From: Candidatus Iainarchaeum sp.
GTDB lineage: Archaea; Iainarchaeota; Iainarchaeia; Iainarchaeales; JAGVWC01
Assembly (NCBI GenBank): GCA_018304465.1
Contig: JAGVWC010000010.1
Span: forward strand, 127,211 to 191,210
DNA: 64,000 bases
Direction of reading: 5' to 3'
Position numbers and translations under genes: made by a program. The notes beneath the pieces were generated by a model. The model saw only the letters and a program-made list of their open reading frames with translations, made no database searches and was not told the origin of the DNA. Below, piece after piece: positions 34,587-45,928 of the stretch (the stretch's first letter is position 1; every line of letters begins with the position of its first letter).

Positions 34587-35798
34587 ATGGATCTCGAAAT
34601 CCTAAGCGTCGCCATCAATAACCTGCGGCACCAAGGCCTGCGAAGCTACCTGACACTCCTTGGCGTAATCATCGGAATCGCCTCGATTTTCGCCTTGGTG
34701 TCGATCGGCGACGGACTCAACGCGTCCGTTACCGAACAATTCGAAAAACTCGGAAGCAACACGATTTTCATCGCTCCAGGCGGCACGTTTTCAAGCGGCA
34801 GCGGAAGCCCCACCGCCACGGTGACGTTCAAAGACAGCGACATTGCACGCCTTGAAAGTTATCCCGAAGTCAAAAACGTCATTCCTTTTTTTGCCACAAG
34901 CACGGTCGGAAAACACGGAAGCGACCAAACCACCATCAGCATTTTTTCGTACGATCCCGACAAATCCGAATCCCTTGAAGAAACCGGAACCATCGAAGTC
35001 CAGGAAGGACGCTTGTTCAACAACCAAGACGTGTTCGCCGCCATGGTCGGAGAACAATTCGCCGAAAAAGCGTTTTCGCGCGAAATCGGACTCAAAAACA
35101 TCATTGAAATCAACGGAAAAAAATACAAAATCGTCGGAATCCTAAAACCCTCCAGCCAAAACATCGGCGGCGGAGGCCCCGAAACCAACAACACCGTGTG
35201 GATACCTGAAAAAGGCGCCCGACAAACATTTCCGAATTACGCGTCCAACTTCATGTTCGCCCAAACCTTCAACAAAGACCAAGTCGCGTCCGCCAAAGAC
35301 AAAATCCAGCGCTACTTTGACCGCGTTTACGGAAAAGACCAAACCACCGTGCAAACCAGCGAACAATTACTGGACCAAATCAAACAATTCCTCGCGATCA
35401 TCTCCGGCACCCTCATCGTGATCGCGCTCATCTCCCTGATTGTGGGCGGCATCGGCATCATGAACGCCATGGTCATGACGGTCCTGGAACGCACCAAAGA
35501 AATCGGCACCATGAAAGCGCTTGGCGCCACCAACACCCGCATCATGACCTTATTCTTGCTGGAAGCAGGCCTCATCGGACTCGTCGGCGGATTACTCGGA
35601 AGCCTGCTTGGATTTCTCATCGGCCAAGGCATGTCCATTGCGGGTCAAGCCGCCGGCATCAATCTCCAAGCCGTGGCCACCCCGGAATTATTCCTGTTCG
35701 TGCTCGCGTTTTCAATTATTATCGGAATGATTTCCGGTGCCTACCCCGCCTGGCGCGCCTCCAAAATGGATCCCGTCGTCGCGTTGCGATACGAATAA
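34587..35798 (+). CDS. ABC transporter permease, FtsX/MacB-like with large extracytoplasmic domain
   Basis: N-terminal TM, ~250-aa periplasmic domain, C-terminal FtsX 3-TM bundle; ends ...KMDPVVALRYE, as does the paralog at 60605. Confidence 0.85.
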   Translation: MDLEILSVAINNLRHQGLRSYLTLLGVIIGIASIFALVSIGDGLNASVTEQFEKLGSNTIFIAPGGTFSSGSGSPTATVTFKDSDIARLESYPEVKNVIPFFATSTVGKHGSDQTTISIFSYDPDKSESLEETGTIEVQEGRLFNNQDVFAAMVGEQFAEKAFSREIGLKNIIEINGKKYKIVGILKPSSQNIGGGGPETNNTVWIPEKGARQTFPNYASNFMFAQTFNKDQVASAKDKIQRYFDRVYGKDQTTVQTSEQLLDQIKQFLAIISGTLIVIALISLIVGGIGIMNAMVMTVLERTKEIGTMKALGATNTRIMTLFLLEAGLIGLVGGLLGSLLGFLIGQGMSIAGQAAGINLQAVATPELFLFVLAFSIIIGMISGAYPAWRASKMDPVVALRYE

Positions 35799-35820
35799 CT
35801 TTTTAAAACCCGAAGAACCA

Positions 35821-36306
35821 ATGCATACACTCATGGCTTCCACACCGCTTCGAAAAATAAAATTCGGCGATCTTCCGCTTTCCGTTCAACACCAGATTAC
35901 TCCGATTCTGCAGCACCGCAAAGACACCCGAATCACCACCGCTGCTTTTGCGTTCATCAACACTGCCGCGCTTGGCCGCGCGTTTCTTCCCAGCACGCCC
36001 AAACCCGACGTGGTAGCGCACGTACTCGCCGAAGCCGTCGTATTAGGCGCAAGCCTCAAAGCCTTGCACCATCACAACGAACCCTTCGAACTCGAAAAAA
36101 AAGGAGTTTTTCACGCGCTTCGAACCACGGACGATCCGAACATCAAAACCCTACTGACCCAATTTCCATTCGTGATCGTTGCCCGAAACGGCGACTTGAT
36201 CGGAAAACGATTCAATCCCCGCATCGGATTCGTTCCCATCGGCCGGCGACGCATTCCAACCCGAGAACGCCCCGCCAAAACCCTTCGCCGAAAACTAAGA
36301 AAATAA
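35821..36306 (+). CDS. Hypothetical protein, paralog A of a tandem pair (conserved GKRFxPRIGFxPIGRRRIPTR motif and basic tail)
   Basis: FGDLP...DPNIKTLLTQFPFVIVARNGDLIGKRFNPRIGFVPIGRRRIPTRERP; ATG at 35821. Confidence 0.5.
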   Translation: MHTLMASTPLRKIKFGDLPLSVQHQITPILQHRKDTRITTAAFAFINTAALGRAFLPSTPKPDVVAHVLAEAVVLGASLKALHHHNEPFELEKKGVFHALRTTDDPNIKTLLTQFPFVIVARNGDLIGKRFNPRIGFVPIGRRRIPTRERPAKTLRRKLRK

Positions 36307-36334: not shown

Positions 36335-36856
36335 ATGAAAAAACCGAACAAGCTCTACTTCGAGGACCTGCCGCAGGACATCCGACAATCCATCCGAGAA
36401 ATCGTTTCCCACCGGAACCGAATCCGACACTTTACAGACGATTTTTTAGTTATCAGCGGAGTGGCCGGCGGCTTGCTGTACCTCAGCACCCGTTCGTTTC
36501 AAAACGGACATCCCACAACAGGAATCATTACCGGTATTGCCGCGTCAATTCCGGCTAAAATAGTCGGAACCGCCCTTGCGGACCATGAACAGGAACATTA
36601 CCGCGAAGCATTATCGCTCCAGCACCGATTAACTAATTCCACAGACCCGAACGTCCAAGCCTTGTGTCAGCGCTTCCCTTATATCATCGTGACCAATAGC
36701 TTTGATCTGGTCGGAAAACGATTCGCTCCACGCATCGGATTCATCCCCATTGGAAGACGCCGGATTCCGACTCGAAAACCAGTGCCAAAACCGAGGCTGC
36801 CCTTTCCACGAACAAGACGAAGAATCCGAAAACGGATCCAGAAACGATTCCATTGA
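36335..36856 (+). CDS. Hypothetical protein, paralog B of the tandem pair
   Basis: FEDLP...DPNVQALCQRFPYIIVTNSFDLVGKRFAPRIGFIPIGRRRIPTRKP followed by an Arg/Lys/Pro-rich tail. Confidence 0.5.
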   Translation: MKKPNKLYFEDLPQDIRQSIREIVSHRNRIRHFTDDFLVISGVAGGLLYLSTRSFQNGHPTTGIITGIAASIPAKIVGTALADHEQEHYREALSLQHRLTNSTDPNVQALCQRFPYIIVTNSFDLVGKRFAPRIGFIPIGRRRIPTRKPVPKPRLPFPRTRRRIRKRIQKRFH

Positions 36857-37808: not shown

Positions 37809-38507
37809 TCATTTTCGGGCAAAAACGCATTTTTTTCTCAAAAAACAGGGTTCACACGCCGGCGTGACCCGGCAAAATTCTTTGGCATGACGAACAATCA
37901 ACGCGTGAAAATCCGAAAAAATTTCGGAGTCCGTCGGAACACCTTTCATCAAAAAGGATTGACACGCATCATAATCCATTGTTTTTCCGAACACCCGCTG
38001 CACCAACCGCCGCGAATACGCATCCACCACGAGCACGGAATGCCCCCCCGCGTACAACAGCATGGAATCCGCGGTTTCAGGACCGATGCCATGCAACGAA
38101 AGCAATTCTTTTCGAACGATTAACAACGGTCGCGACAACAAGCGTTCCACGGACCCGTGGTTTTTTTTGACGTGACCACAAAACCGTTTCAAGCGATCCG
38201 CTTTCTGATTGAAAAAACCCGCGGAACGAATCAAACCCCCTAATTTTTTCGAATTCATTGCCGACAACGCATCCAGATCCAACACCCGGCGACGCTTGAG
38301 ATTGGCCAAAGCTTTTTCGGCATTCGACCACGCGGCATTCTGGGTCAACATCGCCCCGACACAGATTTCAAGGCGCTGCGCCTCGGTCAACTCCAGCCGT
38401 TTCTTGTACGATGCCGGACCCAAGGGTTCATCCGAAACCGGCCACCAGCCTTGAGCACTAAACCGATGTTGCAGCAAACCAAACAAGGCAAACGAATCCA
38501 AAGACAT
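37809..38507 (-). CDS. HhH-GPD family DNA glycosylase (endonuclease III-like) with C-terminal 4Fe-4S Cys cluster
   Basis: HhH motif LLSLHGIGPETADSML; C-terminal Cys cluster C..ACEPCFLRKKC; ATG at 38507. Confidence 0.75.
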   Translation of the reverse strand: MSLDSFALFGLLQHRFSAQGWWPVSDEPLGPASYKKRLELTEAQRLEICVGAMLTQNAAWSNAEKALANLKRRRVLDLDALSAMNSKKLGGLIRSAGFFNQKADRLKRFCGHVKKNHGSVERLLSRPLLIVRKELLSLHGIGPETADSMLLYAGGHSVLVVDAYSRRLVQRVFGKTMDYDACQSFLMKGVPTDSEIFSDFHALIVRHAKEFCRVTPACEPCFLRKKCVFARK

Positions 38508-38541: not shown

Positions 38542-39297
38542 CTATTCGAGCCGGATGCCGGTTTCCGTGATTTCAAACGGGTGCGCGAACAAATCGATTT
38601 TGGTCAAACGCATCTTCAAAATCGCAAGCGTTCTGCGAACCGCGGTTCCGACACTGCCGATTCGAAGCAACAAAATACCGTCGCACAAAAACTCGCTGAT
38701 GGTATCCCGCGTCAACCCGCCTTGATTTCCCGGGCTTTCCACGCGCTCGCTGGTCAAGAGAATCGTGGAATTCGATTGGCCCAAGGCCTTGAAAATGCTT
38801 TTCAAACGCAAACGGTTCATGTTCAACGGATCCATCGCAAATACCTTGGACTCTTCCTTAAACGAAAGATTCGACGGCGACACGGGATTAGAAGTAATCG
38901 AATCCAAGGAATCCAAACACACCACATCGTACTGTGAATTCTTCAGTTCCAAAAGCAAAAAATTCACGAGATTCGGATCATCCGCATCCAGGGACAAAAG
39001 CTTTAGGTTCTTGGCTTTTTTGGGATCCCAGCCAAACTGAATCATCTGGCTTTCGATCCGCGAACTATTCTGCTCCAGATTCAAATACAAGCATTTTTTT
39101 CCTTCCATCGCGTTAAAATACAGAATCTGGGAACACAAAATCGATTTTCCCACTCCCGGCGTACCCGCAACCAAAATCACGTGGCCTTTGGGAAAACCGC
39201 CTTGAATCAATTTGTCCATTCCAGGAACAAACGTTTTGACACGCTCAAAAGCATCCGGCACAAAAGCAACCCGTACCATACCTAACGCAAAACGCAT
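38542..39297 (-). CDS. KaiC/RadA-like RecA-superfamily ATPase (single domain)
   Basis: GGFPKGHVILVAGTPGVGKS Walker A in a KaiC-like context; Walker B VVCLDSLD; ~245 aa. Confidence 0.75.
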   Translation of the reverse strand: MRFALGMVRVAFVPDAFERVKTFVPGMDKLIQGGFPKGHVILVAGTPGVGKSILCSQILYFNAMEGKKCLYLNLEQNSSRIESQMIQFGWDPKKAKNLKLLSLDADDPNLVNFLLLELKNSQYDVVCLDSLDSITSNPVSPSNLSFKEESKVFAMDPLNMNRLRLKSIFKALGQSNSTILLTSERVESPGNQGGLTRDTISEFLCDGILLLRIGSVGTAVRRTLAILKMRLTKIDLFAHPFEITETGIRLE

Positions 39298-39392
39298 ATA
39301 TAAACAATGAGGTTGTTTGTTTCACCGGCAATGCACTCACTGCGGCGATGGATTAAACAGCTTCTTTTTCCCCAACTATTCCAGGGATACGG

Positions 39393-39632
39393 ATGGAGGA
39401 AAAAGAAAACATCATCACGCTGGTTTTGATGTCGATTCAAAAACTGGTTTTTCGCGACAAATTGGCAAGCACGTTCGTATTCACTGGCGTCATCCTGTTG
39501 CTAGGCGCGTTTTTTCTGGCGCGATCCGAAATCGGACAAAACATCGGCGCCACGTACATGATGATCACCGGATTGATGCTTGCATTGCTCGGCTTATACA
39601 GCCAACACCCAACCAAGAAAAACAAACGATAA
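39393..39632 (+). CDS. Small hypothetical membrane protein
   Basis: 79 aa with two hydrophobic helices. Confidence 0.3.
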   Translation: MEEKENIITLVLMSIQKLVFRDKLASTFVFTGVILLLGAFFLARSEIGQNIGATYMMITGLMLALLGLYSQHPTKKNKR

Positions 39633-39651
39633 AAAAAAGAGATGAATCGAC

Positions 39652-39885
39652 TTAGGAACACGAAACCACAATGTCGCTAAATCGCGATCCGTCGGGACAC
39701 CCCTGCGGAAGATCGCAATACTCGATATTGACGGTGCCCCACGGCTTGTCGGAGTCCCGGCAAATTCGAACCGCGGGATTTTCCTGCGTCGAATACACGT
39801 ATCCGAAGAAGCCGCCCAACACCAAACCGATCAGCAGCACCAAAACCAACAAAAAACGCACATCCATCATGTTGAAAAAAAGCAT
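39652..39885 (-). CDS. Small secreted/anchored Cys-containing protein
   Basis: MMDVRFLLVLVLLIGLVLGGFFGY followed by a Cys-containing soluble tail (CRDSD..YCDLPQGCPDG..SCS). The track ORF start at 40077 overlaps the opposite-strand gene, so an internal ATG (39885, or alternatively 39870) is preferred. Confidence 0.3.
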   Translation of the reverse strand: MLFFNMMDVRFLLVLVLLIGLVLGGFFGYVYSTQENPAVRICRDSDKPWGTVNIEYCDLPQGCPDGSRFSDIVVSCS

Positions 39886-39961
39886 CTTTAGGCTTTTAAT
39901 CGTATCGATGGAAAACAGCCACAAAAAACCATTTAAAATTGTTCGAATCCGAATATGAGCC

Positions 39962-40645
39962 ATGAACAATGCGGAATTAAACAAAAAAATGGTCCGCCAC
40001 AGCCGAACCCTTACGTACATTCTGGCCGCCTTTTTGCTGGTCGCGTTGTTTTTGAAGAATTCTGTTTCAAAAACCACGGATTATTCAAACCTTGCCAGTG
40101 AACTTGGAATCCTGTCGTTTATCTTCATCAGCCTGGCTTTAAGCGTCACCCCCATCCGAACCTTGTTTCCCGCGTTTGTGTTTAACGGCACGATTTTTTT
40201 TGCCCGACGCGCGATTGGAGTCTCAAGCTTTGCTTTTGCAGCCCTGCATTTTTCCCTGCAATTCGTTTTTTTCTTCGGAAGCAGTCTTGACGCCTTGTTT
40301 TTGTTTAACCAAAACGCGTCGAACGCGATTTTTTTCGGAATCGTTTCGGCCTTGATTTTGTTTTTCATGACGATTACGTCCACGGACTGGGCGGTTGCAA
40401 AACTCGGCAAAAACTGGTTTTTGCTTCACCGATTCGTTTACCTTGCGTACCCCCTGATCATTCTCCACGCGGTTCTCATCGGATCCGATTTCACACGGCT
40501 TTCATTTCTCTCAGGAGTGTTCCTGTTGGCGGCCGCGCTTACCATTATTTTGGAAGCCGCGCGACTGAACAAAACTCTTCGGCAAAAAACCATTTCCATC
40601 AACCCAAAACCCGAACCGGAAAAACCCCCAAAACGAAACCCATAA
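39962..40645 (+). CDS. Polytopic membrane protein, ferric-reductase-like TM domain (YedZ/MsrQ-like) candidate
   Basis: Six TM helices with conserved His in helices (ALHFSLQ, ILHAVLIG). Assignment is tentative. Confidence 0.4.
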   Translation: MNNAELNKKMVRHSRTLTYILAAFLLVALFLKNSVSKTTDYSNLASELGILSFIFISLALSVTPIRTLFPAFVFNGTIFFARRAIGVSSFAFAALHFSLQFVFFFGSSLDALFLFNQNASNAIFFGIVSALILFFMTITSTDWAVAKLGKNWFLLHRFVYLAYPLIILHAVLIGSDFTRLSFLSGVFLLAAALTIILEAARLNKTLRQKTISINPKPEPEKPPKRNP

Positions 40646-40658
40646 TAATCCGAAATAC

Positions 40659-41183
40659 GTGATCGATAGAATGACCAAAGCGAATTTTCAAATCGAGCGC
40701 GAACCCATCTGGGCTGGATGGTGCCCTATTCACAGCGGCGTTCCACCCGCGTTTGACGCCGGCGGATACGTGTGCACCAAATGCCGAAAAACGGTTTGCG
40801 CCGCCTGCATTTACACTACGAACATCGGCATCATCTGCCAAAACTGCGTTCGCACTTCCAAACACGCCGTCACCGAAGCCACGTCGCTTTATCCCCAACA
40901 AAAAATTTCCGACAAAGACCGCGTCGGAATCGCGCGAATCGAAATCCTGTTGTTTTTGGCCTTGACTGTGGTCGCGGCGGCTATTTCGGTGCTGAGCGTT
41001 TTTAACGAACCCAATCATTTTTTCGTAATACCCATTCTGTACGGCGCCATTGTGACACTCGTGATCGCGTACGCCGCGATGTTCATCAAAAATTACCTGG
41101 ATAAAACCAGGGCCAAGGAAATTTCGCTTACGTCGGACGAAAAAAAAGAACTCGAACGCTTGTCCAATCCGAAAAAGAAATGA
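40659..41183 (+). CDS. Zinc-ribbon plus 2-TM membrane protein
   Basis: Cys pairs WCPIH...CTKCRKTVCAACIYTTNIGIICQNC, then two TM helices and a charged C-terminus. Confidence 0.45.
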   Translation: MIDRMTKANFQIEREPIWAGWCPIHSGVPPAFDAGGYVCTKCRKTVCAACIYTTNIGIICQNCVRTSKHAVTEATSLYPQQKISDKDRVGIARIEILLFLALTVVAAAISVLSVFNEPNHFFVIPILYGAIVTLVIAYAAMFIKNYLDKTRAKEISLTSDEKKELERLSNPKKK

Positions 41184-41284
41184 TTTTCCGAAACTGACCG
41201 GCAAATCACCCCCGTTTTACCGGCAACACACCGCTTCCAAACCTTAAAAGCAACTCGCCGCGTTATCCCTATCCGGGGAAAACA

Positions 41285-41797
41285 ATGGACGAAAAAGAAC
41301 TGATTATTTATTCGAATCCAACGAACGCGAACGCCGCGCACTTCGCATTGATCAAAGCCATCGAAGACGCGCACCACGGATGCGTGTTGTTTGTCGACTG
41401 CATTAACGGGTTTGATCCGTACCAAGTGCTTAAACTCTGCGCAAACCCGCCGCAAGCGCGCCAGATTCTTCACAACGTGCTCGTGTCACGCCCGTTCACG
41501 TTTCATCAGTTCAAACGATTGCTTGACACCGAACTCGCATCCACGTTCGACCGGCACCAGGGACGCGCCGTCATTATTTTGGGTTACACCAATTTGTTTT
41601 TGGATTCCGATGTCGCGGAAGAAGAACGCCTCGCGGTGCTTGGCACCGCCACCAAAAAACTCCACAGCCTCGTGATCGAACACCCGTTGCCCGTCCAAGT
41701 CATGCTCTCCGAAAACGCGTATTCCGAACTCGTACGGGGGTGGCTGGATGGGGCGGACCGTACCGTCGTTTCGACAAGTCGTGGGAAACGAATATAG
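41285..41797 (+). CDS. Hypothetical protein, possibly a Walker-A-less RecA/KaiC-like fold
   Basis: A beta-loop-alpha-beta pattern (LIIYSNPTNANAAHFALIKAIEDAHHGCVLFVD) resembles the RecA core but lacks the GxxGxGKT loop. Speculative. Confidence 0.35.
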   Translation: MDEKELIIYSNPTNANAAHFALIKAIEDAHHGCVLFVDCINGFDPYQVLKLCANPPQARQILHNVLVSRPFTFHQFKRLLDTELASTFDRHQGRAVIILGYTNLFLDSDVAEEERLAVLGTATKKLHSLVIEHPLPVQVMLSENAYSELVRGWLDGADRTVVSTSRGKRI

Positions 41798-41983
41798 CAC
41801 ACTGGAAAAATACTGTAAAGCGCTGCGAAAACAAGACGGAGAACTACTTCGCGAATTGATTCTATCCGCACGCATGCACACGCACGCCGCCGGATACGCG
41901 GGCTTTCTGGATCCCATGCAAGCAATACTTCTCGGAATGCTGCTTGAACAAGAGAAAAAAATAAAAGAAATCGAAAAACGGAA

Positions 41984-42343
41984 ATGATTCAAGTGAACAT
42001 CGTTATTCACCGGAAACAAACCCGCTTAGATGGAAGCGCACACGATTTTTTGTTTACGACCGTATATGTCGATGTTTCGGAAAGAAATCCGCGCCTGGTG
42101 GACTTTAGCGTGTCCCAATTCCTTTTTCTTGACCAAAAACACGCGGTGATCCGCTTCGATTGTGCACACGGGTATCTGAATGTCCATCGTTTTTTTGAAT
42201 CAAAAACGAATCGCACGGATTACCAGGACCAAGTTCCAAGCGCCGAACTGTATGAGCAATGCAAAAAAGATATTCATTCAAATTGGACGGAATACCGGGA
42301 AAAATACCTAAAAAAATGGAAAACAAAACACCACTTTATATAA
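41984..42343 (+). CDS. Hypothetical protein, downstream member of an overlapping two-gene module
   Basis: 119 aa; start overlaps the stop of the 41748..41987 ORF (ATGA). Confidence 0.3.
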   Translation: MIQVNIVIHRKQTRLDGSAHDFLFTTVYVDVSERNPRLVDFSVSQFLFLDQKHAVIRFDCAHGYLNVHRFFESKTNRTDYQDQVPSAELYEQCKKDIHSNWTEYREKYLKKWKTKHHFI

Positions 42344-42359
42344 CATTAGGAGTTATATT

Positions 42360-42734
42360 ATGTGCGGGCTTGAAATGAAAAAAAAACTGACCATCAAAAT
42401 CGGCGGCGACATGGACGCGGACGACCGCGAACTATTAACCAATATCAAGAAAGCCCGCCGACCCTCGCACACCCTTTACCTGGACTCGATCGAGCAACTG
42501 CACGCGCTTTTATCCCCCAAAAAAATCCATATTCTCAAAAGCCTGCTCGAAAACGATGACAATCCAACGGTTTCAGAACTCGCCAAAAAAACAAACCGAA
42601 AACAAGAAGCCATCAGCCGCGACATCCACGACCTTTGCGACCGCAACCTGGTTCGCCTGGAAAAAAAAGGGCAGCGCGTGCATGCAAAAACAAATTACGA
42701 CAAAATCGTGATCGAAATCCCGCTTGCCCGCTAA
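42360..42734 (+). CDS. Winged-helix transcriptional regulator
   Basis: HTH segment TVSELAKKTNRKQEAISRDIHDLCDRNLV, then wing VRLEKKGQRVHAKTNYDKIV. Confidence 0.5.
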   Translation: MCGLEMKKKLTIKIGGDMDADDRELLTNIKKARRPSHTLYLDSIEQLHALLSPKKIHILKSLLENDDNPTVSELAKKTNRKQEAISRDIHDLCDRNLVRLEKKGQRVHAKTNYDKIVIEIPLAR

Positions 42735-42769
42735 ACCGATTTAAAAACTCTTGTTGGGAATATCACGGT

Positions 42770-43606
42770 ATGCCAAAAGTCCTTATTACAGGGGCCAGCA
42801 GTTATGTCGGAGCCCGCTTGTATGCCGATCTTCGGAAAAAATTCGACGTCACCGGAACGTACCATTCGACCCCGCTGTTTCCAGAGCTTGTCAAACTGGA
42901 TGTCACCAATTCCGGCGAAGTCCAGGAAACGGTTTTCAGGCTAAAACCGGATTTTGTCGTGCATGTTGCCGCGAATCCTTCCGCAAAATGGTGCGAAGAA
43001 AACCCGACACTTGCCAAAAAACTCAACGAAGACGGAACCCAGAACGTGGTCGATGCGGCAAATCGAATCCACGCGAAAGTCATTTACATGTCTTCGGTTG
43101 CCGCCAAAAAGCCGTCCAGCCTATATGGAAAAACAAAAGGCGAAGGCGAAAAAATCGCTGTCCAAACCAAAGCAGGATACGTTATTCTGCGCCCATCGCT
43201 TATCATCGGATTCAGCCCGAACACGGTAAACGACCGCGCATACAACCGCTTGCTCAAAAACATCATGGAAAAAACCCCCGCAGTTTACGACACGTCGTGG
43301 AAATTCCGGCCCACTTGGATCGGACACATTTCCGAGATCATCGAAAAAGTGATCGACCGCAACATCACCGGTGAAACGATTCCCATTCTGGTTCCGACAT
43401 TAAAATCTCGGTTCGACATCGCAAAAGACCTTCTTACGGCGTTTGGCATTCAGGCAGCCCCAAAAGACCTTAACGACACAACTCCAGCCGACTCCGAAGA
43501 TCTGGACAAGCTCCGCCAATTGGATCTTCCCCAGTATACGTACCCAGAGATCCTTGAAAAGATAATCCGCGAAACAAAAGACTATCTCCAAAGTATCCGA
43601 TCGTAA
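42770..43606 (+). CDS. NAD(P)-dependent epimerase/dehydratase family protein (dTDP-4-dehydrorhamnose reductase RmlD-like)
   Basis: N-terminal Rossmann KVLITGASSYVGARL; YxxxK-type region (SLYGKTK); ATG at 42770. Confidence 0.7.
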   Translation: MPKVLITGASSYVGARLYADLRKKFDVTGTYHSTPLFPELVKLDVTNSGEVQETVFRLKPDFVVHVAANPSAKWCEENPTLAKKLNEDGTQNVVDAANRIHAKVIYMSSVAAKKPSSLYGKTKGEGEKIAVQTKAGYVILRPSLIIGFSPNTVNDRAYNRLLKNIMEKTPAVYDTSWKFRPTWIGHISEIIEKVIDRNITGETIPILVPTLKSRFDIAKDLLTAFGIQAAPKDLNDTTPADSEDLDKLRQLDLPQYTYPEILEKIIRETKDYLQSIRS

Positions 43607-43678: not shown

Positions 43679-45928
43679 ATGCACGGCACTTTAATCGATG
43701 TTTTTTCGGACAAAAACGAACTCGTCCTCTGGATCCGGTACGGAACCCAGAATCTGTTCCTGAGGGACGCCTACAAACCCGTTTTTTTCATCCAAAGCCG
43801 CGAACACGACTTGATTTCGATCGCCGACACCATTTCAACCGAATTTCCAGGCGACGACTATGTCATCCGGCTCGTGAAAAAACGGGATTTTGACACGAAC
43901 CGATTGCAAGACGCCTTGCAAGTGCAAGTCAAAGATTTTCGAAAACGAAGCAAACTCGTTCGGTTTTTGAACACCGAATACCAATTCGAATCCAATCTGT
44001 TTCATGCCGACCTATCCGTGGAACAACTATACTTGTTCGAAAAAAACCTCCGGCCATTGCAAGACGTGGAATTCGGCGTGCAAGGCAAACGAATATGGTT
44101 TTTGCAGCCCTTAAAATTCCAGGCATTCACCGACGAGTTTCCCGCTTTTACCCACGTAACCGTGGAAGCGATTCCGAAAGGCGACGTACGGCAAACCAAC
44201 GAAATCGCGCTTGAAGCGATGCGTTTAGACGAACAATTTTTCCGCGGAAGCGAAGACGAAATTCTTTTGCAATTCAAGAATGCGTACGAAAAAAAAGATC
44301 CTGACATCGTGCTGTCTGTTTCCGGAAACAAATGGATGCTCGAATATGTCAAACAACGCTTTCTTTTTCACCGGATTCCGTTCGAATGGGGCCGGTTTTC
44401 CGACAAAGCCGGCGGAAAACCCAGTTCGTATTTTTCCTACGGACAAATCATTCGCCGGGACCTCAGCCATTTTTTGTGCGGACGACTGCACATCGACACC
44501 AGCGGTTTTCATTTCAAGGAATGCGGACTCGACGGCGTGCTCGAAATGGCGTACACCACGGCGATGCCCGTGCAAAAAGCCGGCTTCAAAAGCTCCGGTT
44601 CGTGCATTTCGAATTTGCAGTTGTTTTACGCCTACCAGCAAGGATACCTGATTCCCGACCGGAAAAACCAGGTGGAAAAATTCGACTCGGGCTGGCACTT
44701 GTTTGAAGTCGACAAAGGCGGCATGGTATTCGAACCCAGAATCGGATTGCACGAAAACGTCGTCGAGCTCGATTTTTCCAGTTTGTATCCCTCGATCATG
44801 GTCGAACACAATATTTCACCCGAAACCGTGTTATGCCATTGCTGCGACAACGACGTGGTGCCCGAATGTCATTACAACATCTGCGAAAAACGCCGCGGAC
44901 TGATTCCGATCGTACTCAAACCCGTGCTGGAAAGACGATTGTACTTCAAGCGCATGAAAAGCATGACGAAAGGAAAAGAACGCGAAACCTACAAACAAAA
45001 AGCCAACGCCCTCAAATGGCTGCTCGTAACATCGTTTGGCTATACGGGATACAAAAACGCGCGTTTTGGACGCATCGAATGCCACGAAGCCATTTGCGCG
45101 TATTCGCGCGAAAAACTCCTTTCCGCCGCCCGAATATGCGAAGACGCCGGTTTTGAAGTACTGCACGCCATCGTGGATTCCGTCTACATAACCAAGCCCG
45201 GATTTTCGCTTGACGACCTCTCCGCACTGATCAACACCATCACCGAAAAAACCCGGGTCGAAATCGTTCTTGAAGGAATATTCAATTGGATCGTGTTCGT
45301 TCCGTCTCGACGCGATCACCGCATCGCCACCCCCACCCGTTTTTACGGAGTATACCAAAACGGGGAAGCCAAGCTCCGCGGACTCGAAATCCGGCGACGC
45401 GATTCCCCCACCGCCATTAAAAAAATGCAATCCGAACAAATCGCGATTCTTTCCAAAGCGACCGACAAAACCTTGTTTGAAAAACAAATTCCCAAAGTCA
45501 AGCGCAAAATGAAAGAATGGATCCAAAAACTCCACAACGGCTTGATCCCCTTCGAAGAACTCGTGATCACCAAACGCGTGTCAAAACCGCTTTCGAAATA
45601 CCGCGGCACCAACGCCCAAAAAACCGTGTTGACGCAACTGGCCCGCCGCGGAATCGAAATACACCCCGGGGAAAAAATACGTTTTCTTTATACCAAAACC
45701 GATTCGTCACAACCCGAAAAACGCGTCACGGCGTATTCAAACCAAACGCCGCCGGTTACGGTCGATCACAAAAAATACGAAGAATTATTCGTCAACGCGA
45801 CGTGGGAATTACTGCATTTTAACGGAACCAAAAAAGAAGAATTATTCGAAACGCTTTTTGACCAACAACAGACAAAACTCAACGCGTTTTCAGAAACGAA
45901 ACCCGCGAAAATGAGCCGACATGGATAA
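43679..45928 (+). CDS. polB: Family B DNA polymerase, with apparently degenerate exonuclease motifs
   Basis: Motif A DFSSLYPSIM, motif-B-like K..LLVTSFGYTGY, motif-C region HAIVDSVY; 749 aa. Confidence 0.85.
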   Translation: MHGTLIDVFSDKNELVLWIRYGTQNLFLRDAYKPVFFIQSREHDLISIADTISTEFPGDDYVIRLVKKRDFDTNRLQDALQVQVKDFRKRSKLVRFLNTEYQFESNLFHADLSVEQLYLFEKNLRPLQDVEFGVQGKRIWFLQPLKFQAFTDEFPAFTHVTVEAIPKGDVRQTNEIALEAMRLDEQFFRGSEDEILLQFKNAYEKKDPDIVLSVSGNKWMLEYVKQRFLFHRIPFEWGRFSDKAGGKPSSYFSYGQIIRRDLSHFLCGRLHIDTSGFHFKECGLDGVLEMAYTTAMPVQKAGFKSSGSCISNLQLFYAYQQGYLIPDRKNQVEKFDSGWHLFEVDKGGMVFEPRIGLHENVVELDFSSLYPSIMVEHNISPETVLCHCCDNDVVPECHYNICEKRRGLIPIVLKPVLERRLYFKRMKSMTKGKERETYKQKANALKWLLVTSFGYTGYKNARFGRIECHEAICAYSREKLLSAARICEDAGFEVLHAIVDSVYITKPGFSLDDLSALINTITEKTRVEIVLEGIFNWIVFVPSRRDHRIATPTRFYGVYQNGEAKLRGLEIRRRDSPTAIKKMQSEQIAILSKATDKTLFEKQIPKVKRKMKEWIQKLHNGLIPFEELVITKRVSKPLSKYRGTNAQKTVLTQLARRGIEIHPGEKIRFLYTKTDSSQPEKRVTAYSNQTPPVTVDHKKYEELFVNATWELLHFNGTKKEELFETLFDQQQTKLNAFSETKPAKMSRHG

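Follow-up and report, generated by a model that had tools for sequence, protein, structure and literature searches.

In archaea, the family-B DNA polymerase PolB2 has been tied to two small partner proteins. One of them, the small and alpha-helical arCOG07300 protein, was linked to PolB2 and to an inactivated RadA (iRadA) by Makarova et al. 2014 (PMC4104785). It was named PPB2 by Timinskas et al. 2025 and is defined by an N-terminal MGRT arm and by Arg3/Arg9 (PMC11791011). Interspersion of foreign genes in the PolB2 operon is termed rare (PMC4104785, PMC11791011). A C-terminal motif of the PCNA-binding type, frequent but not obligatory, has been described for iRadA, and usually only one of PolB2 and iRadA carries a motif of this PCNA-interacting protein (PIP) type (PMC11791011). 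A second described system, TumE–TumA, is an experimentally validated, translation-targeting toxin–antitoxin (TA) superfamily whose antitoxins are diverse (DUF6516/PF20126; Durairaj et al. 2023, PMC10584680). Here we analyse a stretch of 64,000 nucleotides (nt) from contig JAGVWC010000010.1 of a Candidatus Diapherotrites (Iainarchaeum) metagenome-assembled genome (MAG), which derives from aquifer metagenomes. The whole stretch is called the window below, and all coordinates are window positions. In all likelihood, the region between a KaiC-like ATPase gene and a polymerase gene in this window is a composite, made up of a PolB2 operon, an inserted TA-like cassette with an epimerase gene, and unrelated membrane genes upstream.

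An earlier note on this DNA, made from the letters alone, had regarded the block from 39.3 to 42.7 kb as an accessory island rich in short genes. The open reading frames (ORFs) it listed are present at or near the places it gave, and public gene calls agree. What the region contains is a DNA-damage-tolerance operon of known type, interrupted in a rare way, with a candidate new relative of a known TA family.

The iRadA–PPB2–PolB2 operon and its interruption

The genes from iRadA to the polymerase are the following.

41285..41797, plus strand: iRadA, 170 residues, predicted inactive Rad51/RadA homolog in minimal form (phmmer, profile alignment)
41748..41987, plus strand: PPB2 (arCOG07300/DUF8156), 79 residues, by a precomputed PF26485 match; shares 50 nt with the iRadA 3' end
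41984..42343, plus strand: DUF7718 protein, 119 residues, candidate TumE-like toxin (PF24839, 2.1e-11)
42360..42734, plus strand: HVO_A0114-family winged-helix protein, 124 residues, candidate TumA-like antitoxin/autorepressor (PF25212, 1e-13)
42770..43606, plus strand: RmlD/NAD-dependent epimerase-like sugar-nucleotide enzyme, 278 residues (PF04321, 4.3e-24; PF01370, 6.3e-19)
43679..45928, plus strand: PolB2, family-B polymerase, aligning to plasmid PolB homologs at ~1e-85 to 1e-89

Homology and synteny identify iRadA, PPB2 and PolB2 here as the published iRadA–PPB2–PolB2 operon. For the 41285–41797 gene, assignment to iRadA, the predicted catalytically inactive Rad51/RadA homolog of PolB2 operons, comes from comparison with the genes that occupy the same place elsewhere. 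The 170-residue protein matched the ORFs that immediately precede PPB2 in other PolB2 loci, with phmmer E values of 8.6e-15 to 1.6e-7 for the 30 best of 61. In an alignment of the window protein with 13 homologs (A5, 14 members), it retains all of the family-invariant residues (P45, R69, F71, T72 and Q75), which sit in the blocks D-G-G-N-x-x-D-P-Y and S-R-A-F-T-x-Y-Q. The A5 profile matches RadA/Rad51/DMC1 structures down to 6.6e-18, and every member (14/14) matches Pfam Rad51 at E ≤ 0.1, the window protein alone giving an E value of 0.088. Searching the PDB sequences with the lone iRadA sequence returned nothing, and a word-indexed homolog search returned one fragment. The earlier note had seen in this protein a RecA/KaiC core devoid of a Walker A loop, and this description proved apt: the RadA P-loop GEFGSGKTQL is aligned to SNPTNANAAH, with no GKT at the P-loop position.

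The window iRadA is also a reduced member of its family. It begins about 10 residues before the P-loop position; the N-terminal helical domain is absent, an N-terminal segment of ~40 residues being missing. Among a set of 62 it is one of the shortest (170 residues versus typically 230–290), and forms of 181 and 192 residues occur in compact operons. All 13 aligned homologs have a conserved C-terminal Gln in a tail of the type Q-x-x-L/M-x-x-F/W/Y; no C-terminal PCNA-binding motif was found in the window protein, which ends before this tail. Structure prediction, one of the checks proposed earlier, was informative for one of the two proteins concerned. The AlphaFold2 (AF2) model of the DUF7718 protein is confident, with a predicted local distance difference test (pLDDT) score of 95.6. 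The single-sequence AF2 model of iRadA is poor (pLDDT 44.5), and in it only the alternating beta/alpha pattern is consistent with a RecA-like fold.

The 79-residue gene at 41748–41987 is assigned by homology to PPB2, the PolB2 partner. Its product begins MGRTVPSFR, with MGRT, R3 and R9 all present, and its length is 79 residues against a family range of ~80–110, with homology to the family clear. Searched against the window ORF together with 739 decoy ORFs, a profile built from four haloarchaeal homologs picked out the former at 2.6e-17, in an alignment that begins with M1. The correct start is 41748, the longer option, since homologs align from residue 1 (MGRT), as did those found by tblastn on 45 haloarchaeal plasmids. 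A G-rich Shine-Dalgarno-like stretch, GGGGGTGG, is located at 41731–41747, inside the iRadA 3' end and directly 5' of the PPB2 start, and it supports internal initiation at 41748. In each of the four haloarchaeal plasmid loci inspected, the PPB2 homolog is positioned between a hypothetical gene of 230–320 residues that resembles iRadA and a type B DNA-directed DNA polymerase. A tblastn search against phages gave no match for either PPB2 or iRadA.

The 43679–45928 polymerase is of the PolB2 type, judging by its motifs and its relatives. Motif C reads HAIVDS ("IVD" instead of DxD), against the consensus HGIVDS of 78 PolB2 sequences, the window one included, and motifs A and C are retained as they are in relatives. 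The exonuclease DxE is absent at the aligned ExoI position (FTHVTVEAIP), in a region that varies among relatives; ExoI is the exonuclease motif that was inspected. SDK is found at about residues 240–242, in a column that is not conserved in the 78-sequence alignment. At the C-terminus (45880–45900) there is a PIP-like QTKLNAF (Q-x-x-L-x-x-F). The location of such a motif on PolB2, and not on the shortened iRadA, would fit the published one-of-two pattern. The best relatives share 30–40% identity with the window polymerase, and all have PPB2 upstream. When used as a lone query, the window PolB2 found no relative in genome or metagenome contig collections, and no sibling genome was recovered. 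A variant within the population (L004) carries an in-frame deletion of 21 nt relative to window positions 44065–44085, in the N-terminal (degenerate exonuclease) part of PolB2.

With the aligned window and plasmid polymerases as the query, we then surveyed 80 loci of PolB2 type in species representatives of GTDB. PPB2 was detected in 69 of the 80 loci, and in 69/69 it lies upstream of the polymerase and is co-oriented with it, the gap between the two having a median of ~33 bp. In the window, the corresponding gap is 1.7 kb and contains the DUF7718, HVO_A0114 winged helix-turn-helix (wHTH) and epimerase genes. Insertions between PPB2 and PolB2 were seen in two of the 69 other loci. In one (L086:5489-6823, Thermoplasmata archaeon clean282), a major facilitator superfamily transporter gene on the opposite strand separates PPB2 and PolB2 by 1.7 kb. 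In the other (L074:5985-6882, Thermoplasmata archaeon SMAG_U8329), the PPB2 ORF shares its frame with a VapB antitoxin domain, and a PIN toxin comes next, before PolB2. The L074 VapBC is a second, independent TA insertion at the PPB2/PolB2 junction. The two junctions are alike in containing a TA or TA-like cassette that starts with a gene connected to the PPB2 end, in frame in L074 and by an ATGA overlap in the window. They differ in the TA family, L074 having the VapB antitoxin first and then the PIN toxin, and the epimerase is present only in the window.

No DUF7718, TumE or strong HVO_A0114 match was found in the 80 other PolB2 loci; one fragment (L037) weakly matches the wHTH profile (E 4e-4). 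Hence the cassette, for which these loci show no strong match, is not part of the PolB2 operon. From iRadA to PolB2, the genes are separated by overlaps of 50 and 4 nt and then by gaps of 16, 35 and 72 nt. The ATGA overlap and the short spacers suggest co-transcription, and the cassette is probably co-transcribed with the PolB2 operon. A/T-rich TATA-like boxes precede the starts of the epimerase (42770) and PolB2 (43679) genes.

Compared to the PolB2–PPB2–iRadA "mutasome" (Sulfolobus Dpo2; PMC4104785, PMC11791011), the window operon has the same three families on the same strand, in the order iRadA–PPB2–PolB2. In both, PPB2 has the MGRT arm, and the ATPase site and N-terminal domain are missing from iRadA. 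Both also have a PolB2 in which Ile replaces the first Asp of DxD and the exonuclease domain is degenerate, and a PIP-like motif on just one of the two larger subunits. The window operon is distinguished by its host, a DPANN archaeon (Diapherotrites), by a minimal iRadA of 170 residues that lacks the C-terminal Q-x-x-L-x-x-F tail, and by the three foreign genes (1.7 kb) that split PPB2 from PolB2. Reasoning by analogy from Sulfolobus Dpo2 and from published models, we would expect a complex of one PolB2 with one iRadA and a trimer of PPB2, in which a single PPB2 copy inserts its N-terminal MGRT arm between PolB2 and iRadA. This complex would carry out DNA-damage-induced translesion synthesis and mutagenesis.

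The DUF7718–wHTH cassette

A stop/start-overlapping, TA-like module was among the features claimed earlier. The ATGA overlap at 41984–41987, where the DUF7718 start meets the PPB2 stop, is real. The pairing itself does not stand, as it joins PPB2 to DUF7718 when the pair that recurs is DUF7718 and the wHTH gene, which lies 16 nt downstream of DUF7718. Likewise, the wHTH regulator of the earlier note exists, as the 124-residue HVO_A0114 protein, and it is the partner gene of the cassette rather than a separate regulator. We also considered the DUF8156 protein as a third TA component. This candidate was rejected: no similar ORF is found upstream of DUF7718 elsewhere, and the DUF8156 protein is PPB2.

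Between them, the homologs of DUF7718 and iRadA were obtained from an exhaustive search, from tblastn on plasmids and from PolB2-anchored loci. The exhaustive search yielded 62 DUF7718 representatives, and a profile search yielded 126 clusters, from archaea (Diapherotrites, Altiarchaeota) and diverse bacteria; a word-indexed search returned two matches. The family conserves D59-x-x-H62-G63…H68 and N100-W101. In the AF2 model, the window protein has six antiparallel strands and a C-terminal helix of 30 residues. A PDB sequence search gave three matches, all at chance level (best E 0.018), and no informative match was found for the structure among PDB or viral structures. The codon-usage score of DUF7718 is the lowest in the block (0.09 versus 0.16–0.45), and the gene is short; this low score is compatible with recent acquisition.

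In every context examined, a partner gene directly follows DUF7718. An HVO_A0114 wHTH gene lies 0–32 nt after it in L013, L014 and L019 (another Diapherotrites MAG, an Altiarchaeota MAG and the closest relative, at 54% identity). Thus, with the window included, the order DUF7718 then wHTH is seen in four unrelated neighbourhoods, and there is no PPB2-like ORF upstream in the other three. One protein (P0074) is a DUF7718–wHTH fusion. The partner in bacteria is DUF5647 (L015–L018, MAG contigs), amid HEPN/nucleotidyltransferase, Uma2 and DUF2281 genes. On haloarchaeal plasmids (L111:1881-2479, Halorussus; L112:1968-2476, Haloferax), a third partner type is found, a gene of 45 residues with a 4-nt overlap. 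PIN, HEPN/nucleotidyltransferase, Uma2 and RelE genes occur as neighbours. We take DUF7718–wHTH to be a self-contained, mobile, TA-like cassette, one that would work in the manner of TumE–TumA.

Several features link this cassette to TumE–TumA. In all five haloarchaeal plasmids examined (L012, L023–L026), an HVO_A0114 wHTH gene (97–101 bits) directly follows a TumE gene, so that DUF7718 has the same partner family as these archaeal TumE genes. The four full-length TumE copies scanned match PF20126 at 1e-10 to 2e-15; the fifth is truncated (L012, 75 residues) and annotated DUF6516. Haloarchaeal TumE conserves R-Y-D-N-x-H…H-E-x-H, and hhalign of DUF7718 against TumE aligned the motif RyDxAHG…HxH (E 1.8e-4, probability 48.5%, 24 columns). 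One DUF7718 member of 53 matches Pfam TumE at 1e-3. Both are small alpha+beta proteins of ~100–120 residues with an R-[YF]-D-x-x-H-G…H-x-H signature. Both are encoded in coupled two-gene cassettes that are patchily distributed across archaea and bacteria, with interchangeable partners, and both lack PDB relatives. On the other side, DUF7718 is a separate Pfam family with a toxin-first order, and its predicted fold of six strands and one long helix differs from the seven strands and two helices reported for TumE.

From these likenesses we infer that the DUF7718–wHTH pair may be a TumE/TumA-like type II TA module. The cassette occupies the PPB2/PolB2 junction, and its organisation suggests a TA function. 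In such a module, the toxin would be DUF7718, a small alpha+beta protein that would act through a D-x-x-H-G…H-x-H site and may block translation as an RNase. Its neutralisation and the autorepression of transcription would fall to the wHTH protein, and the ATGA overlap would couple DUF7718 translation to that of PPB2. Membership of DUF7718 in the TumE family is not established; homology with TumE and toxicity are proposals drawn from sequence.

Upstream genes and flanks

Four genes precede iRadA and follow the KaiC-like ATPase gene.

38542..39297, minus strand: single-domain KaiC/RadA-superfamily ATPase with an intact P-loop (Pfam KaiC PF06745, 1.5e-39); context gene
39393..39632, plus strand: 79-residue protein with two predicted transmembrane (TM) helices (hydropathy, residues 23–47 and 51–69); best codon frame; called in public assemblies
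39652..39885, minus strand: 77-residue ORF with an N-terminal hydrophobic anchor (hydropathy, residues 1–33) and a tail with four Cys
39962..40645, plus strand: 227-residue MsrQ/YedZ-like ferric-reductase-type membrane protein with ~6 TM segments (Ferric_reduct PF01794, 4.1e-10)
40671..41183, plus strand: 170-residue Zn-binding protein with two TM helices (CxxH/CxxC spacing; TM at 83–114 and 114–140; codon test positive)

The earlier descriptions of these genes were borne out. Two small membrane or secreted proteins are present, one of 79 residues with two hydrophobic segments and one of 77 residues with an N-terminal anchor and four Cys. So are a ferric-reductase-like TM protein (227 residues, with the Ferric_reduct match), a double zinc-ribbon protein with one CxxH and three CxxC pairs followed by two TM helices, and, next to the block, a single-domain KaiC-like ATPase (PF06745, as listed).

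The 227-residue protein matches the TM domain of the MsrQ/YedZ haem-b proteins over its full length, and His96, His156 and His169 are within or beside TM segments; it is a probable haem-b protein. Unlike MsrQ, it scores under the equivalog cut-off (NF003831 at 2.3e-16, below the NCBIfam threshold), and no MsrP-like partner gene is adjacent. In the 40671..41183 protein, the ligands are C18-x2-H21, C35-x2-C38, C43-x2-C46 and C56-x2-C59. These eight Cys/His ligands of the N-terminal domain are predicted to form two Zn sites; B-box matches are sub-threshold only. The 39652..39885 ORF is the weakest call in the block: it has 77 residues on most contigs and 90 on one, and no family match was found for it in Pfam, NCBIfam, PADLOC or PHROG scans. 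Three of the four upstream genes (39393–41183) have no informative homologs. All four are membrane genes specific to the lineage, and no link between them and the PolB2 operon or the cassette was detected.

In total, eight genes lie within 39393–42734, and nine lie between the KaiC-like ATPase gene (38542–39297) and the polymerase gene (43679–45928). All nine except one (39652–39885) are on the plus strand. NCBI entries with identical sequences exist for the proteins of the region (locus tags J4215_03830 to 03875), and the same gene models appear in independent calls on >10 public contigs. One caveat here is that all contigs with the region are >99.1% identical to the window and represent a single population, and hence they support the sequence, not conservation between species. 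Coding potential, named in the earlier note among the grounds for refutation, was assessed with a codon-usage log-odds test trained on 17 long window ORFs, comparing six frames per gene. The annotated frame ranked first of the six for every gene but the 77-residue minus-strand ORF, which gave no clear best frame, and long overlapping alternative ORFs were rejected.

NCBIfam KaiC-type models match the 38542..39297 protein below cut-off. We treat this ATPase as a context gene and do not count it in the operon. Adjoining it on the minus strand at 37809–38507, 2.8 kb upstream of iRadA, is an HhH-GPD DNA glycosylase gene (3-methyladenine glycosylase/Nth-like), which may indicate a DNA-repair neighbourhood. 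Further upstream, 35737–36306 and 36335–36856 encode tandem paralogues of 189 and 173 residues with a common C-terminal motif, GKRFxPRIGFxPIGRRRIPTR; neither is matched by Pfam.

Alternative readings and implications

Could the whole 39.3–42.7 kb block instead have been acquired in one piece, as a single accessory, defence or signalling island? Most of its many short genes share a strand, iRadA, PPB2 and the wHTH protein have matches among PHROG families, and the lowest codon-usage score in the block is that of DUF7718. Against this, two of its genes belong to a PolB2 operon conserved across archaea, which already contradicts the idea for iRadA and PPB2. These two have an assignable role in DNA-damage tolerance as conserved PolB2 partners (PMC4104785, PMC11791011), contrary to the non-housekeeping character that had been ascribed to the block. 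A PADLOC scan (PADLOC-DB 2.0), also proposed earlier, returned no defence system, only HTH-level similarity of the wHTH protein to Csa3/CasR and weak P-loop matches for the KaiC-like ATPase. We saw neither an integrase nor a tRNA or repeat boundary, the base composition does not stand out, and the flanking genes are chromosomal housekeeping by public gene calls. We therefore regard a single island as highly improbable. What survives of the proposal is the TA-like accessory cassette and the RecA-like protein lacking a Walker A loop; taken whole, the block is no single island of the accessory, defence or signalling kind.

A different possibility is that DUF7718 and the wHTH protein are a dedicated regulator or sensor of the PolB2 operon rather than a selfish TA module, replacing the lexA or orc1/cdc6 found beside other PolB2 operons. 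The pair is inside the operon and translationally coupled to PPB2, regulators are enriched in PolB2 neighbourhoods (PMC11791011), and the L074 operon has VapB–PIN at the same junction. However, the pair occurs in neighbourhoods lacking PolB2 and in none of the 80 other PolB2 loci, and two TA insertions in 70 operons could be chance, TA modules being abundant. Such a role thus appears unlikely. We are equally doubtful that the PolB2 system is decaying, with the operon split by an insertion and the truncated iRadA a remnant that no longer works with PolB2. The 1.7-kb insertion, the population variant with its 21-nt in-frame PolB2 deletion, and an iRadA of 170 residues (versus typically 230–290, among the shortest of 62) would all be expected of decay. 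Yet all three ORFs are intact with normal codon scores. The iRadA invariants, the MGRT, R3 and R9 of PPB2, and motifs A and C of PolB2 are all kept, and the short iRadA forms of 181 and 192 residues exist in compact operons.

The composite reading that we prefer, of a PolB2 operon interrupted by a TA-like cassette, has points against it as well. The window iRadA is unusually short and its AF2 model is poor, its predicted fold being based on sequence. The D(K/R) loop motif of PolB2, which contacts PPB2, could not be placed with confidence. On the side of the cassette, the window DUF7718 protein gave no match to PF20126 or the NCBIfam TumE models, and the hhalign probability for DUF7718 and TumE is only ~48% over 24 columns. 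Toxicity of DUF7718 and of the archaeal TumE–wHTH pairs is putative, and the toxin-first order differs from that of most published TumE–TumA clusters (PMC10584680).

A bolder extension is that the TA cassettes at the PPB2/PolB2 junction (DUF7718–wHTH and the L074 VapBC) are more than chance passengers, being translationally tied to PPB2 and gating or reporting expression of the mutagenic polymerase; separately, DUF7718 would be a new branch, archaeal and bacterial, of the TumE superfamily, having at least three interchangeable partner types. We think this a long shot. If true, toxin activation and damage-induced mutagenesis would be connected in archaea.

Stop/start overlap alone can mislead, as the overlapping PPB2 and DUF7718 genes belong to different systems. 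HVO_A0114 winged-helix proteins emerge as a regular partner of TumE-type genes in archaea, and DUF7718 is now a candidate for a new branch of the TumE superfamily of toxins. The window iRadA is the smallest in this survey. With iRadA, PPB2 and PolB2, three "hypothetical proteins" of a DPANN genome can be named, and their identification indicates that a reduced Diapherotrites genome retains a predicted translesion/mutagenesis polymerase complex.

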